DNA of 64,000 nucleotides, taken from contig CAWKPH010000001.1 in the NCBI GenBank assembly GCA_963851445.1, positions 361,363-425,362 on the forward strand. The letters run 5' to 3'. The stretch's first letter is position 1. Each line of letters starts with the position of its first letter. This stretch comes from an uncultured bacterium. Lineage in GTDB: Bacteria > Patescibacteriota > Minisyncoccia > Phycocordibacterales > Phycocordibacteraceae. This document shows positions 2,825 to 48,800 of this stretch, piece after piece. The position numbers and the translations under genes are program-made. The notes under the pieces are model-generated. The model was not told the DNA's origin. It saw only the letters and a list, made by a program, of their open reading frames with translations, and searched no databases.

Positions 2825-4123
2825 ATGGAGTATCAGCACCTTAAAAAAGAAGATCCTGACGTCTTTACAACTGTCGAAGGCGAAGAGAAACGAGAAGCCG
2901 AAGGACTCGAGCTGATTCCTTCGGAGAATTATGTTTCGATCGCAGTGCGTGAAGCCATGGGTTCCGTCTTCACCAATAAATATTCTGAAGGCTATCCGGG
3001 CAAACGATACTACGGTGGACAGGAATACACCGATCAGGTTGAGTCGATCGCGATAGAGCGCGCAAGGAAACTCTTCAATTGTGATCATGCAAACGTGCAA
3101 CCACTCGGCGGTGCGGCTGCAAACATTGCTGCGTATTTCGCATGGCTTGAACCTGGCGATACGATTCTTGGCATGGACCTCTCTCACGGGGGGCACCTCA
3201 CCCATGGTTCTCCGGTCACGTATATGGCAAAGCTCTTCCGATTTGTTCGGTACGGAATGAAGAATATCGACACAGGGGAAATTGACTATGATGCACTACG
3301 TGAAAGTGCACTGAAGGAGAAGCCAAAAATAGTCCTTGCTGGATTCTCTGGATATCCACGCGAACTCGATTGGCAAAAGATATCTGATATTGCAAAAGAA
3401 GTCGGCGCCGTCGCAATGGCTGATGTTGCGCATATTGCAGGGCTCATCGCTGGTGGAGCTGCAAAAAACCCCTTCGACTATGGTTTTCAAATAGTAACGA
3501 CAACGACGCACAAAACTCTTCGCGGACCGCGCGGCGGCATGATTCTTTCGAAGGGAATTGTCTCAAGTCCTATAAAGGCTCCTGAAAAGACCATAGAGAA
3601 TCTACCAACATTAATCGATCGGAGCGTATTCCCGGGATTTCAGGGTGGTCCCCATATGCACCAAATAGCAGCCAAGGCAGTCTCGTTCCATGAAGCACTG
3701 CAGCCCGCATTCAAGAACTACGCTCAGCAGATCATTAAGAACGCGCAGGCAATGGCAGAAGTGCTCAAAGCCAATAATGTGCGTATGATCGCTGGAGGAA
3801 CTGACAACCATCTCATTCTCGCTGATGTGTTCGGTTCGCTCGGTATTTCTGGCGGAGAGGCAGAAAAACTTCTTGATGAGGCAGGTATCACACTCAACAA
3901 GAATTCAATTGCTGACGACACACGCAAACCATTTGATCCGTCGGGTATACGGTTTGGTACACCTGCAATGACAACCCGGGGCTTTATGGAACCCGAGTCC
4001 AAGCAGGTCGCAGAGATCATGGTTGAGGTACTCACGAAGCGCGATGCAGCAACTGTCTCCAAAGCACGCGAGCAAATTCGCACGCTTGCTATTTCTCATC
4101 CAGTTCCAGAGTCCTTTGTGTAA
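2825..4123 (+). CDS. glyA: serine hydroxymethyltransferase
   Basis: 432 aa. Carries the LIPSENYVS motif and the PLP-lysine motif TTTTHKTLRGPRGG. Confidence 0.95.
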   Translation: MEYQHLKKEDPDVFTTVEGEEKREAEGLELIPSENYVSIAVREAMGSVFTNKYSEGYPGKRYYGGQEYTDQVESIAIERARKLFNCDHANVQPLGGAAANIAAYFAWLEPGDTILGMDLSHGGHLTHGSPVTYMAKLFRFVRYGMKNIDTGEIDYDALRESALKEKPKIVLAGFSGYPRELDWQKISDIAKEVGAVAMADVAHIAGLIAGGAAKNPFDYGFQIVTTTTHKTLRGPRGGMILSKGIVSSPIKAPEKTIENLPTLIDRSVFPGFQGGPHMHQIAAKAVSFHEALQPAFKNYAQQIIKNAQAMAEVLKANNVRMIAGGTDNHLILADVFGSLGISGGEAEKLLDEAGITLNKNSIADDTRKPFDPSGIRFGTPAMTTRGFMEPESKQVAEIMVEVLTKRDAATVSKAREQIRTLAISHPVPESFV

Positions 4124-32875: not shown

Positions 32876-33540
32876 GAGGAGTAGACACTGATCCTTGACA
32901 TCTGAATACGTAAATTAAAGGTATCAACGTCATGTTTCGAAAGAGACATGACAGTGAATTGCATTAGATCATAAAATTGTGGTGTTCAGGTTTCCGCACA
33001 GGAAACGTGAAGGGTGCACGGTGGATGCCTAGGCTTAGAAAGGCGATGAAGGACGTGACTAGTCTGCGAAATGCTCCGGGGAGGTGACTTGTAACCTTTG
33101 ATCCGGAGGTGTCCGAATGAGGAAACTCAATCCGAATGGATTACCTATCTCTATTGAAATAGGAGCAAACCCAGGGAAGTGAAACATCTCAGTACCTGGA
33201 GGAAAAGAAAACAACAGCGAGTTACTTTCCGTTCGCCCGATGCTTCGGGCGGATGGAAAGTAACTCTCGCGATTCCCTAAGTAGCGGCGAGCGAAACGGG
33301 AAATAGCCCAAACCAGATACTTCGGTATGTGGGGTTGTAGGGCAGAGGTTCCGTACTTGTATGGCAAGAGTTACAAAAGACTTATATAACGGAAACTGCT
33401 GGGAAGCAGTGCCCTAGAGGGTAATGGCCCCGTACGTGAAATATATGATCACTCTTGTGCTTCTATTCCTGAGTAGTTCGAGACACGAATAGCTCGGATG
33501 AATCTGCCGGAACTAACCGGTAAGGCTAAATACTTTCTAA

Positions 33541-33586
<46 letters not shown>

Positions 33587-34159
33587 GAAAGGGGAGTGAA
33601 ATAGAACTGAAACCGTGCACTTACAAAGGGTTATGGCGGGTGTTCGCATCCGTTATAGCGTGCCTATTGAAGAATGAGCCTGCGAGTGTATGTATGTTGC
33701 GTTGGCTAAATCCGTTATGGGATGGAGCCCTAGGGAAACCGAGTGTGAATAGCGCGTTTGTAGCATACATACGACCCGAAGCCAGGTGAGCTTGCCATGG
33801 GCAGGGTGAAGTTCAACGAAAGTTGGATGGAGGCCCGAACCCGTACGTCGTACAACGCGTTGGGATGACCTGTGGTAAGGAGTGAAAAGCTAATCGAACC
33901 TGGTAATAGCTGGTTCTCTCTGAAACATCTTTTGGGATGGCGTCGTGTGATCCTTCTGGGGGTAGAGCACTGGAAGGGATGAACAGGGAGAAATCTCGTC
34001 ATTCCTATCAACCTCCGAATACCAGAAATTAACAGCACGGCAGTTAGACCATGGGGGCGAAGCTCCATCGGTCAAAAGGGGAAGAGCCCGGATCGCCAGT
34101 TAAGGTCCCTAAATCGACACTGAGTACAACTTAAGGAAGTGAGAATCCTTCGACAATGA

Positions 34160-34191
<32 letters not shown>

Positions 34192-35065
34192 GATAGCGTA
34201 ACAGCTCACTCATCGAGGGTTCTTGCGCCGAAGATAATCGGGGTTAAGTGTCGTACCGAAGCTGCGGGTTTGTGCACTTCATAGAGAGTGTGTTTAAACA
34301 CGTCCTTTCTATGAAGTGCACAAGCGGTAAGAGAGCGTTCCGTTCTGCGATGAAGGATAAAGGGGTGACCCATTCTGGAGCGTACGGAAGTGAGAATGCA
34401 GGTACAAGTAACCACAATGCGGGTGAGAACCCCGCACGTCGAAAGATCAAGGTTTCCTCAGCTATGGTGATCAACTGAGGGTTAGTCGGGCCTAAGGGGA
34501 TGGCGAAAGCCGCACCCGATGGACACAGGGTTAATATTCCCTGACCGATTACACATGCGATGGAGTGACGGACGGCTGTACGTAGTGCCCATTATTGGAT
34601 TTGGGTCAGTGCCGTGAGGAGGTGTCCTAGGAAAATCCGGGATGCACATACTCCGAGCGGAAAGGCAATGCTCTTCTTCGGAGGGGCAGAGACTACGGAG
34701 CGCGGTTCCAAGAAAAACTTCTAAGCTTCAGTGTGTAACGACCGTACCGCAAACCGACACAGGTGATCAGCTCGAGTAGAGTAAGACGAACGAGTGAGAG
34801 GTCCTCAAGGAACTCGGCAAAAAAGCGGCCGTAAGTTAGCGATAAGGCCTGCCCCATATCAAGTTATAGGGCCGCAGCGAAAGATTTTCTGGCAACTGTT
34901 TACCAAAAACACAGCTCCCTGCGAACTCGTAAGAGGATGTATAGGGGGTGACGCCTGACCAATGCCGGAAGGTCAAGCAGGGACGGTAGTATAGATTTCG
35001 ATTTGTACGTGCTAGGCCCTATAAGCCCCGGTGAATGTCGGCGATAACTATAATCGTCCTAAGGT

Positions 35066-35258
35066 TCTGCATAGGATTCGTCCTATGCAGAACGGATTGG
35101 GACGATTATAGGAGACCGTAAACAGTTCTGAGAAGATTACGTCATTAAAAGCTACCTCTTTCTTTGGAAACGAAGATTGAATCCGCAACTCAAATGAGAG
35201 GCCATACGTTGCGCTCCCGAAAGGGATGAAGATATGGTCCTTCTTGAAGGAATAGAAG
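35066..35258 (+). other. intron-like / intervening sequence 1 in 23S (about 193 nt)
   Basis: It splits the universally conserved CCUAAGGU|AGCG(A)AAUUCCUUGUC sequence (E. coli about 1925-1931). It begins with a perfect hairpin, ctgcatagga-ttcg-tcctatgcag. It contains gggacgattatag, complementary to the upstream exon ctataatcgtcc. Confidence 0.5.
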
Positions 35259-35919
35259 AGCGTAATTCCTTGTCTGGTAAGTTCAGACGTGCACGAATGG
35301 CGTAATGACTGGAAAACTGTCTCGAGGACTCGCTCGGTGAAAATGCAATACCGGTGAAGATGCCGGTTACCTGTAGTTAGACGAAAAGACCCCAGGAGCT
35401 TTACTACAGCTTCATATTGAGGCTGCGTGGCTCATGCGTAGAATAGGTGGGAGGCTTTGAAGTGTCCTTTTCGGGGGACATGGAGCCGACAGTGAAATAC
35501 CACTCTTGAGTTGTGCAGTCTCTAACCTACATAAGAACTATGTGGGGACCGTGTGTGGCGGGTAGTTTTGGTGGGGCGCTATCCTCCTAAAAAGTAACGG
35601 AGGAGTCTATTAAGGTTGGCTAGGCGCGAATGGAAACCGTGCCGATAGTGTAAGGGCATAAGCCAGCTTAACTGCGAGACGTACATGTCAAGCAGATGCG
35701 AAAGCAGAGCCTAGTGAACCGATGGTTCGCCTTAGATGCGGCCAGAGATTAACGGATAAAAGTTACCCTGGGGATAACAGGCTAGTTCCGCCCAAGCGTC
35801 CATAGCGACGGCGGAGTTCGGCACCTCGATGTCGGCTCACCTTAGCGCGGGGCTGGAGAAGGTCCCAAGCGTTTGGCTGTTCGCCAATTAAAAAGGTACG
35901 CGAGCTGGGTTCAGACCGT

Positions 35920-36260
35920 GCAGAAATTAATTCTGGAATTTATTCTATGACTCGATTTCTGCACCGTCTGAATCCCTTTGAGATTTCTGTTATCAGAACT
36001 CGATAAAGTGCGAATGTGAATGTCTTTTCGTCGTACAAGACGAATAAGAACCAACCATGACACGGCGACGTGTGCAGGAATGTACAACGATCAATCAACT
36101 AATATCGGTAAAACCCGATCCGGAAACGGAGGACAATACCGAGGGAAATCGAAAGATTGACCCGTAGAGACTGAATGTTGATCACCTAGAACCGGTGAAG
36201 TTACAGTCCGATCCCTTCAGTAATGGAGGCGCATGCGTAAAGCAAGCATAAAACAAAATG
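35920..36260 (+). other. group I intron-like insertion 2 in 23S (about 341 nt)
   Basis: It splits GGGUUCAGACCGU|CGUGAGACAG, the equivalent of the E. coli 2593 site. The 5' exon ends in U and the insert ends in G. Internal accgtctgaa pairs 9/10 with the 5' exon end ttcagaccgt, which is IGS-like. No ORF lies inside. Confidence 0.55.
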
Positions 36261-36624
36261 CGTGAGACAGGTTGGTCTCCTATCTACTACAGGCGTTGAT
36301 TTTTGAGGAGAGTTGCCCCTAGTACGAGAGGACCGGGGTGAACTGACCTCTGGTCTACCAGCTGTCTGCCAAGGCACCGCTGGGTAGCTATGTCGGGATG
36401 GGATAACTGCTGAAAGCATATAAGCGGGAAGCCCACTCCAAGATTAGAAATCGTTATGAGACACCTAGAAGATTACTAGGTTGATAGGCTCTAGATGTAC
36501 GCACAGTAATGTGTTCAGTCGAGGAGTACTAATATGTCCAGTTTCTTGTGCGGAATTCTGTATGGCACAATTTGTTTGGTCGCATACATTATTTCATATA
36601 CTATTTACGTATTCTAGTACGAAC

Positions 36625-36752
36625 GTACCCAGAACGCTGGTGATTTGTCCGAAGGGCCACACCCGTTCTCATTCCGAACACGGCAGTTAAGCCTTCCTGA
36701 GCCGATGGTACTCGTAAGGGGAGAGTAGGTTGTCGCCAGCGTTCTGGGTACG
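36625..36752 (+). rRNA. rrf: 5S ribosomal RNA
   Basis: Helix I gtacccagaacgctgg ... ccagcgttctgggtac. Conserved loop ccgaacacggcagttaagcc and gccgatggtactcg. Confidence 0.8.
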
Positions 36753-46549: not shown

Positions 46550-46736
46550 GGACTCATTGCCTCGTGGGGGCGTATTTTTTACTCTCCAGAGTAAGGCAGC
46601 GGCACCTTGAAAACAGAATACGTTAAACACAACTTGTGCATAGAAGTGCATTATATAGAGCTATACAAATCAGTGGAATATAAGTATGCAGGGAGAAATC
46701 CTTGCAAGTGAATTCTTTTGTTCCGCCTATTCTTAA

Positions 46737-48197
<1,461 letters not shown>

Positions 48198-48416
48198 CGG
48201 ACCGAGTTGATAGAGATATCACTCATTGTCGATCTGTTCGTATGCGGAGCGTTGAGAATTTTCTCAATTATTTTGCATGCGGCAGGGGAGATGACTGTTG
48301 TCCCAAAACACAGTACGGACGCCGGAAAAACGCACCGGCACGTGGGATCGCTCAATTGACGATCTCACACGGAATAGGCGGAACACAAGAGCGCACTTTC
48401 CACTGATTTAGATTCT

Positions 48417-48456
48417 AAAAACAAACAGCCTGAGTTACTCAGGCTGTTTGTTTTTA
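48417..48456 (+). terminator. rho-independent terminator downstream of 16S
   Basis: aaaaacaaacagcctgag-tta-ctcaggctgtttgttttt: a perfect 16-bp stem with flanking A-run and T-run. Confidence 0.7.
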
Positions 48457-48725
48457 GAACGTTGCGGTAGCGTTGTTCGGGGCATGCTCATTTTTCATGC
48501 GAGCGAGCTTGAGAACGCACCGACGCCAAATCCTATACTTATTCCTGTGTCGGCGAAGCTTATCTTCAAGCGTGGAGTAATGACGCCTATGTCGTGATTC
48601 GCGATTTGTGACGCGATGCTGCATCCTTAGGTTTGAGTATAACTCAAAATCTTCTATGCTGCTGGGGAAAAGGACAAAGTTGCCTAAGGGTTTAGATTTG
48701 ATACTATCCAGAGACCAGACAATAC

Positions 48726-48800
48726 GCAAGCGTAGCTCAGTTGGTAGAGCACCCGACTGATACTCGGGCGGTCGAAAGTTCGAATCTTTCCGCTTGCACC
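48726..48800 (+). tRNA. tRNA-Ile (anticodon GAT)
   Basis: Cloverleaf folded by hand. Acceptor gcaagcg/cgcttgc. D arm gctc-agttggta-gagc. Anticodon arm cccga-ctGATac-tcggg. 5-nt variable loop. T arm gaaag-ttcgaat-ctttc. Discriminator A. CCA is not fully encoded. Confidence 0.8.

Follow-up and report, generated by a model that had tools for sequence, protein, structure and literature searches.

A probable group I intron without a homing endonuclease gene at position 2593 of a patescibacterial 23S rRNA gene, with a conserved second strand complementary to its 5′ exon

The 23S rRNA gene of an uncultured bacterium of the Patescibacteriota (GTDB family Phycocordibacteraceae) is interrupted near its 3′ end by 341 nucleotides (nt), which raises the question of what this insert is and, if it is an intron, which of its sequences would select the 5′ splice site. 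We studied the insert within a 64,000-nt stretch of genomic DNA (GenBank assembly GCA_963851445.1, contig CAWKPH010000001.1, forward-strand positions 361,363 to 425,362), referred to as the window, in whose numbering all coordinates are given. An original prediction had described the insert as a group I intron-like element whose internal segment accgtctgaa pairs with the 5′ exon to form P1, i.e., as its internal guide sequence (IGS). Our analyses indicated that the insert is very probably a group I intron at site L2593 in the 23S rRNA of a Patescibacteria (Kaiserbacteria-like) bacterium, without a LAGLIDADG gene and most likely splicing by the guanosine-initiated route, and that its candidate guide is a different segment.

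The Rfam LSU_rRNA_bacteria model identified a bacterial 23S rRNA at 32996-36553 on the plus strand, with a length of 3558 nt compared to the 2925 positions of the model, and in a local Rfam search this large subunit (LSU) model left approximately 347 bases unaligned between GGGUUCAGACCGU and ACAGGUUGGUC. Global MAFFT alignment with a 23S copy of E. coli (L001) showed a single insertion of 341 nt (35920-36260), which follows position 2594 in the E. coli copy. The L001 copy is presumably numbered one higher than standard E. coli, based on the known A2602 in GAGACAG, and the insertion site is therefore the standard U2593. The junctions cannot slide, as the exon ends in CCGT, the insert starts with G and ends in AATG, and the 3′ exon starts with CGTG (flanking exon sequences GGGUUCAGACCGU upstream and CGUGAGACAGG downstream). 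The exon junctions defined by these LSU searches and alignments bore out several parts of the original prediction, namely a 341-nt insert at 35920-36260, its location at the I-CreI-type site of the 2593 region, a 5′ exon ending in U, and an insert ending in G. Site L2593 is inside helix 93 of domain V, adjoining the peptidyl-transferase centre. The region of the insert folded far better than shuffled sequences (z = -5.9), and inserts of the same type, with the same site and features, were seen in 55 other genomes among the matches listed, so the features of the insert are not a matter of chance.

These relatives were found by scanning one genome per GTDB species for GCTGGGTTYAGAMCGTD, allowing any base but C after U2593, which returned at least 120 loci; all family counts given here, such as the 55 members and the 53 with an additional exon-complementary strand, come from the matches listed. 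About 80 of the loci had an insert of 200-1400 nt ending directly 5′ of CGTGAGACAG, nearly always in G, and two classes of L2593 insert could be distinguished among the matches listed. Class A, from Saccharibacteria, Acidimicrobiia and others, follows the exon AGAACGU, starts with AAAUUACAUUGCGUUCUAC and carries its guide, GCGUUCU, some 11 nt into the intron. Class B, from Parcubacteria-type Patescibacteria, follows the exon AGACCGU, comprises at least 55 introns of 213-795 nt, and is homologous to the window insert by nhmmer, with E = 1e-35 for locus L024 and values below 1e-9 for more than 20 other members. The motif set of class B consists of insertion after U2593 in AGACCGU, a CACGGCGR guide, the P4 sequence UAUCGGURAA, GUAGAGAC at J6/7-P7, and the strand UCUGAAYC in the P1 loop, and the window insert carries every one of these. 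A terminal G was present in 53 of the 55 members and is G36260 in the window. Locus L024, the closest among the matches listed, belongs to a metagenome-assembled genome (MAG) of Ca. Kaiserbacteria (JARIGM010000009; Patescibacteria group / Parcubacteria group) and has a 3′ exon 95.6% identical to that of the window, in agreement with the link to candidate phyla radiation (CPR) hosts made in the original prediction. In two other loci (L015 and L019), the last 15 bases of the L2593 intron, AUGCGUGAGAACAUG, resemble the 3′ exon that follows, CGUGAGACAG; this imperfect direct repeat across the 3′ splice site is absent from the window copy.

Helices P2 to P9 were assigned from a sub-threshold Rfam alignment and the family alignment, and were evaluated on a MAFFT alignment of 37 sequences (A1), with P3 treated as a pseudoknot. 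In A1, which was not fitted to the structure, 93.4% of cells were paired compared to 31-40% when the 3′ partners were slid by 1-3 columns, a control that somewhat favours the structure because the latter was partly derived from the same sequences. Changes on both sides were found for 28 of 40 pairs, and none of 500 shuffles reached the observed values. When P3 and P7 were mis-nested rather than pseudoknotted, pairing fell to only 15-17% for both helices, and the pairing signal is therefore specific to the P3/P7 pseudoknot.

The core so defined is compact and lies entirely on the plus strand. P2 (36069-36089) is a hairpin with a GGAA (GNRA) loop whose inner five pairs were 86% paired and all compensatory (5/5). 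The 5′ strand of P3, AUCAAC (36094-36099), pairs with GUUGAU (36177-36182; 6/6 compensatory, 94% paired), and this 3′ strand closes the P3/P7 pseudoknot, based on the covariation in A1. Between them, the P4-P6 domain (36105-36163) contains P4 (36105-36109/36138-36142; 97% paired), P5 (36114-36115/36131-36132; 89%) and P6 (36143-36145/36161-36163; 100%), for which the Rfam alignment agreed with A1, as well as two GAAA-capped extensions predicted from the sequence only, P5a (36120-36122/36127-36129) and P6a (36148-36150/36155-36157). The P7 5′ strand, G[A]GACUG (36167-36173), pairs with CAGUCC (36204-36209), in agreement with the Rfam alignment, and was 100% paired in A1, its terminal pair switches between G-C and A-U in 12 of 37 sequences, another of its pairs is changed on both sides in one sequence, and its bulged A (A36168) is invariant (37/37); P7 is presumed to be the guanosine-binding helix. 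Only AAU (36174-36176) separates P7 from the P3 3′ strand, with no P7.1/P7.2 extension, consistent with the class B alignment in which 3 nt lie between P7 and the P3 3′ strand and 1 nt between the latter and P8. The P8 hairpin CACC/GGUG (36183-36197) was 92% paired and compensatory at 4/4 pairs. The P7 3′ strand is preceded by J8/7 (AAGUUA, 36198-36203), part of a conserved GAAGNUA, and the P9 hairpin CCUUCA/UGGAGG with its GUAA loop (36214-36229) was 99% paired, with 5/6 pairs compensatory. An extra, P9.1-like hairpin at 36231-36247 is particular to this copy, being absent from L024 and most other members, and the last intron base is the terminal guanosine, omega-G (36260).

A permissive local search of 601 nt with the Rfam Intron_gpI model, a check named in the original prediction, aligned a group I core at 36022-36230 with the same P3-P9 assignment, albeit with a score of only 23.9 bits (E = 6e-4) against the cut-off of 50; two family members at L2593 exceeded that cut-off (L057, 56.3 bits; L121, 54.6 bits). 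No group II intron family was matched in an Rfam search of 35800-36400, even at E ≤ 10. The group I reading of the original prediction was thus upheld by the co-varying P2-P9 core, by relatives above the Rfam cut-off, and by the homologues of I-CreI and I-MsoI that relatives with an open reading frame (ORF) encode (see below). The single Rfam group I model covers the introns of CPR bacteria unevenly and overlooks many of them. In locus L088, a group I intron at another 23S site (3621-3900, minus strand) scored 70.5 bits, and the L2593 intron of the same genome was missed by Rfam.

The same core bears on whether the insert could be an RNase III-type intervening sequence (IVS) or an expansion segment, an element that either leaves the 23S fragmented, being cut out with no ligation, or persists in it as an additional helix. 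An IVS of that type is a simple extended stem-loop in place of a hairpin at a known IVS site, whereas at helix 93 we found a multi-helix, pseudoknotted and complete co-varying group I core, with homologues over the Rfam cut-off and I-CreI-type genes in relatives. Short inserts of this kind are also found in CPR 23S genes, but the known IVS sites lie in the 5′ portion of the gene, where they correspond to 23IS2 and 23IS4, and group I introns occupy the CPR hot spots 23IS6-14, including 2593 (PMC11270868). Similarly, the 21-bp helix that spans the 5′ junction of the insert could in principle be an RNase III substrate, yet cutting it would sever the peptidyl-transferase loop. We regard this explanation as extremely unlikely.

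With the insert read as a group I intron, its guide has to be located. The motif (C)ACGGCGG occurs in every class B intron directly 5′ of P2 and about 40 nt upstream of P4, a distance that matches the position of the guide in the simpler class A introns; ACGGCG is invariant in the 37-member alignment and the guide is kept in all 55 members. In the window this is CACG|GCGA (CACGGCGA, 36061-36068), about 100 nt downstream of the segment accgtctgaa. Its 3′ half forms a P1 of 3 bp with the end of the 5′ exon, consisting of a G36065·U35919 wobble, C36066-G35918 and G36067-C35917, and in relatives GCGG(UC) gives 4-6 bp (51 of 53 members). Its 5′ half, CACG (36061-36064), forms P10 with CGUG (36261-36264) at the start of the 3′ exon, and tracks the variants of that exon (CGUG:CACG in 42 members, CGUA:UACG in 4/4, and CGCA:UGCG in 2/2). 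We took 36061-36068 as the catalytic guide because a G·U pair at U2593 and a P10 that co-varies with the exon make up the canonical group I layout; group I introns almost universally have a G·U wobble at the site of cleavage.

The complementarity noticed in the original prediction is real and longer than had been claimed. The segment accgtctgaa (35963-35972) is part of an inverted repeat with 21-nt arms (35907-35927 and 35955-35975) that are 90% complementary, the upstream arm running from 13 bases before the splice site to 8 bases after it. The exon portion (35907-35919, GGGUUCAGACCGU, 23S G2582-U2593) pairs with ACCGUCUGAAUCC at 35963-35975, which we term the anti-exon strand and which had been designated the IGS, and the intron portion forms a hairpin from the splice site (35920-35927/35955-35962, spanning 35920-35962) that extends the exon/anti-exon helix and is found in most members. 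Within the anti-exon pairing the splice-site U faces A35963, and there is a C-C mismatch at 35917/35965.

Could this long junction helix (35907-35919/35963-35975) be the catalytic P1, with cleavage at a U-A pair and CACGGCGA conserved for some other reason? Its topology is that of a P1, with an exon strand, a splice site, the 5′ bases of the intron, a loop and a complement, and it is present in 53 of 55 members, with the -1 and -2 pairs kept in approximately 49 of 53. The base opposite U2593 is G in eight members, but it is A in 41 of 53 and C in 4 of 53, and the bases 5′ of the anti-exon cannot pair with the 3′ exon, so that no P10 would form. The segment at 36061-36068, in comparison, offers a G·U in all members and a P10 that follows three exon variants, and it stands directly before P2 at the distance from P4 seen in class A introns. 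In addition, locus L031, which has the same exon, has its guide 9 nt from the 5′ end and no anti-exon. Catalysis through the junction helix is therefore very unlikely, and the role of accgtctgaa as P1/IGS proposed in the original prediction did not hold, as the U faces A and P10 is absent.

What the anti-exon strand contributes instead was examined through its conservation. A UCUGAAYC(C) anti-exon lies upstream of the guide in 53 of the 55 class B introns, and its distal nine positions pair with G2582-C2590 at a mean of 8.9 of 9. In all four genomes in which the exon reads UUUAGA instead of UUCAGA, the anti-exon reads UCUAAA instead of UCUGAA (4/4), replacing a C:G with a U:A pair at the sixth base of the 35907-35919 exon stretch. 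In 52 of 53 members there is at least one mismatch in the last four exon positions, usually at C2591. The absence of an anti-exon in L031 makes the element look like an insertion into the P1 loop. Based on these patterns, the anti-exon appears to be a conserved, separate exon-binding element and not the catalytic guide, one that would act as an exon clamp or a switch. We tentatively put forward the possibility that it is a peripheral element, functional and so far undescribed, of the group I introns in CPR rRNA genes, a 5′-exon clamp of 9-13 bp beside a very short P1, that might hold the exon, turn splicing on or off, or guide reverse splicing. The expanded loop L1 also contains two peripheral hairpins (35976-36008 and 36023-36049, within 35976-36049) in the minimum free energy fold, partly kept in L024. 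A second complementarity, between 35955-35964 and 36072-36081, was not kept in L024 and was dropped as chance.

These assignments are consistent with a standard two-step, guanosine-initiated splicing route as the most likely one. The guide at 36061-36068 would pair with the last three exon bases, with the G·U at U2593 (P1), and would form P10 with the four bases that open the 3′ exon. The active site would be built from the P3-P9 and P4-P6 domains, and G36260 would serve as the terminal guanosine. A feature specific to this family is the enlargement of the P1 loop to approximately 140 nt, containing the hairpin from the splice site followed by the 13-nt anti-exon on 23S G2582-U2593. In the mature ribosome, the 5′ exon bases concerned form the central loop of domain V and the beginning of helix 93. 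The distal 9 bp of the anti-exon pairing could keep them attached to the intron between the splicing steps and when other rRNA folds compete, and the conserved C2591 mismatch could let the last few exon bases leave the clamp for P1. The clamp could thereby hold the exon through both splicing steps. As the P1 and anti-exon pairings overlap in part, the element may also act as an on/off switch, tying splicing to the folding of the peptidyl-transferase region, and the anti-exon could provide a longer guide when the free intron reverse-splices into 23S rRNA.

Several points weigh against this interpretation. The window had no match to Intron_gpI at the Rfam gathering threshold (50 bits). The anti-exon helix is much more stable than P1 and competes with it for the same exon bases. 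The guides of the window and L024 read GCGA rather than the GCGG of 51 of 53 relatives, giving a P1 of 3 bp. We infer the splicing of the window copy and of the family members from sequence, and the evidence for the clamp role consists of conservation and covariation.

Two of these points, the low Rfam score and the 3-bp P1 resulting from the guide G-to-A change shared with L024, would also be expected of a decayed group I intron that has ceased to splice and either is kept in the mature 23S or makes the gene non-functional, as would the lack of an endonuclease gene. There is a possible precedent, since the L1931 intron of Simkania was reported, according to the title cited as reference 28 of PMC11270868, to remain in mature 23S rRNA. 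However, all core helices of the window intron are intact and the omega-G and P7 bulge are kept. The intron is 74.7% identical to that of L024, compared to 95.6% for the adjoining exon, and since that split P2, P8, P9 and the 5′ hairpin (GUAGAGAU/AUCUCUAC in the case of the hairpin) have been kept by compensatory change, which at 75% identity argues that the RNA structure is still under selection. In addition, this is the sole 23S gene in the window, and its helix 93 is split by the insert beside the peptidyl-transferase centre, where 341 extra nt would be unlikely to be tolerated. We consider decay very unlikely and a splicing-competent group I intron the best explanation of the insert.

The original prediction also stated that the insert has no ORF, and in agreement with this no ORF inside it was longer than 58 aa, the minus strand having the two longest (58 and 52 aa), followed by one of 46 aa on the plus strand; neither of the two tested (58 and 46 aa) had a Pfam match, and no trace of a homing-endonuclease (LAGLIDADG) ORF was found in the 341 nt. 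Three long CPR relatives (L055, L102 and L028) encode LAGLIDADG_1 proteins by Pfam, of 147-158 aa, that match I-CreI, I-MsoI and I-CvuI over the full length (E = 1e-19 to 1e-32), and nhmmer placed the extra sequence of these long copies in the P6 loop. I-CreI and I-MsoI are the endonucleases of organellar L2593 introns. If the window intron ever had a LAGLIDADG gene like those found in P6 of some relatives, it has since lost it.

Inserts were found in 82% of CPR 23S genes by Tsurumaki et al. 2024 (PMC11270868), with 2593, 1917, 1931, 1952, 2604 and 2657 as recurrent LAGLIDADG_1 sites and 222 ORF-less group I introns in 23S genes as counted by Rfam model; inserts not matching Rfam, mostly <200 bp, were left uncharacterised. 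As the CPR introns at 2593 are already catalogued in that study, the window intron joins a known group, with which it shares the host group, the site, and the mix of LAGLIDADG_1-bearing and ORF-less copies. That work classified introns by Rfam model and ORF content, and the window copy, at 23.9 bits, would fall below its Rfam criterion; no description of the guide, expanded P1 loop or anti-exon was found in it. Cyanobacteria (Synechococcus/Thermosynechococcus) also have L2593 introns, which differ from class B in having a P7.1/P7.2 extension of approximately 65 nt (Haugen et al. 2007, PMC1995217). The organellar and cyanobacterial introns, which are of the subgroup IA type, share the site after U2593, and related single-motif LAGLIDADG proteins are found in the ORF-bearing CPR relatives, whereas the window copy is ORF-less and an expanded P1 loop with an anti-exon has not been reported for the organellar and cyanobacterial introns. 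The Chlamydomonas intron Cr.LSU, with I-CreI, is an L2593 intron.

The tRNA-Ile intron of Azoarcus is a compact bacterial group I intron of subgroup IC3. The window intron shares with this type a small core, a short P5, the absence of P7.1/P7.2, the P3-P9 order in the Rfam model, and GNRA loops capping P2 and P9, for which P8 and P5 are possible docking sites, but differs in having an rRNA rather than a tRNA host gene and 140 nt from the splice site to the guide. Competition for the 5′ exon was reportedly described by Woodson and Cech in Tetrahymena pre-rRNA, where a P(-1) helix competes with P1. As in that case, the P1 exon bases can sit in a competing helix, making splicing dependent on conformational exchange; the Tetrahymena helix is an exon-exon hairpin, whereas here the competitor is encoded in the intron and co-varies with the exon. 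Engineered trans-splicing group I ribozymes with extended guides (for example, PMC3895272 and PMC6155759) offer another likeness, as extra antisense beside a short P1 strengthens their hold on the substrate, as the anti-exon would for the 5′ exon. Those ribozymes are artificial, act in trans and pair across the other side of the splice site, whereas the anti-exon is natural, in cis and in the P1 loop. In the literature searched, whose coverage was incomplete, we found no description of the anti-exon element and nothing relevant on natural extended exon pairing, so novelty is not proven.

The same 23S gene contains a second insert, of 193 nt, that follows U1931 in the E. coli alignment (35066-35258, flanked by UCCUAAGGU upstream and AGCGUAAUUCC downstream) and also ends in G; its exon partner is 35048-35065. 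Intron_gpI had no match in this L1931 insert even at E ≤ 10. Homologues of this CPR-wide family were identified at 12 GTDB loci, and a pattern scan of metagenome contigs yielded many others, for a total of 40 non-redundant CPR-type copies. In a family alignment (A2), 84.4% of cells were paired compared to 33-50% in the slid controls, with 28 of 48 pairs compensatory, including P3 at 4/4. The helices identified were a 5′ hairpin from the splice site, a 5-bp helix (35094-35098/35180-35184), P2, P3, P7, P8 and P9, in addition to the terminal G. The 5′ strand of P7 is at 35198-35204; an earlier candidate for P7, GGAGACCG at 35111-35118, was not conserved in the family alignment and was rejected. 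Here too there is a 13-nt anti-exon (35099-35111), which pairs with the loop and 3′ strand of helix 69 (H69) and co-varies with exon variants, and in the guide, GCU|ACCU, the splice-site U is paired with A.

In the L1931 insert of the window, the P3 and P7 5′ strands are only 8 nt apart. The guide motif could be identified in 26 of the 34 short copies, which are 178-262 nt long; in these 26, the distance from guide to P7 was uniformly short (48-59 nt), which means that P4-P6 is absent there as well. Five longer relatives (L007, L096, L153, L156 and L179) have a P4-P5-P6 of approximately 70 nt at exactly that spot, one of which (L096) scored 50.7 bits, at the Rfam threshold, with a P4-P6 parse. 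The L1931 insert is, as judged from these alignments, a group I derivative without a P4-P6 domain. In the short copies with a guide found, the guide was G[CU]UAC(C/U)(U/C), with the U paired to A, and all but one ended in G; four of the five long copies had GCUGCCU, with a G·U wobble, and ended in A rather than G. The guide pattern could stem from the J4/5 wobble receptor having been lost, or from common descent alone, and, representing few evolutionary events, it is reported here as a pattern with no claim of correlation. The same anti-exon design at the unrelated site L1931, combined with the complete loss of P4-P6, hints that the stacked exon and anti-exon strands can partly stand in for that domain as a scaffold. 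Nothing relevant on natural introns lacking P4-P6 was found in the literature searched, the coverage of which was incomplete.

The L2593 element itself adds a further ORF-less group I intron to a known CPR 23S hot spot and is ordinary for the group. In practical terms, such rRNA genes are longer than expected, and the single group I model of Rfam misses many of their introns. The interest for RNA biology lies in a natural, co-varying, proposed exon clamp beside a P1 of 3-6 bp and in a widespread group I derivative without P4-P6 in the same gene, both of which are testable cases of the limits of group I scaffold remodelling in vivo.

A noisy anti-exon scan of all insertion sites of the fetched loci, with G·U allowed, had a background of 8-9 bp, above which L1931, L2593 and possibly L2256 stood out. 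In that scan, inserts near 2256-2264 in two Patescibacteria loci (L058 and L007) had a 5′-exon complement of 11-12 bp approximately 27 nt into the intron, compared to the 8-9-bp background, with the same layout as the anti-exon strands at L2593 and L1931.

The rRNA genes of the window are unlinked and in an unusual order, with the 23S-5S pair (32996-36741) located 10 kb upstream of 16S-tRNA-Ile (46732-48800) on the same strand. Rfam identified the 5S at 36636-36741 and the 16S at 46732-48197, both on the plus strand, the 16S match being 1466 nt compared to a model of 1533 positions, and thus free of any large insert. Nine ORFs lie between the 5S and 16S genes, eight of which had a Pfam match (FtsW/RodA, glycosyltransferases, FolD, SecD, SecF and AAA-domain proteins). 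Relative to E. coli, the 23S gene also has extra segments at 33216-33267 (52 nt), 33332-33385 (54 nt) and 34268-34294 (27 nt), after positions ~228, 291 and 1163, respectively, and deletions of 11-23 nt at ~163-173, 1739-1761 and 2793-2808. These small differences in length are probably lineage-specific changes in helix length or short intervening sequences.

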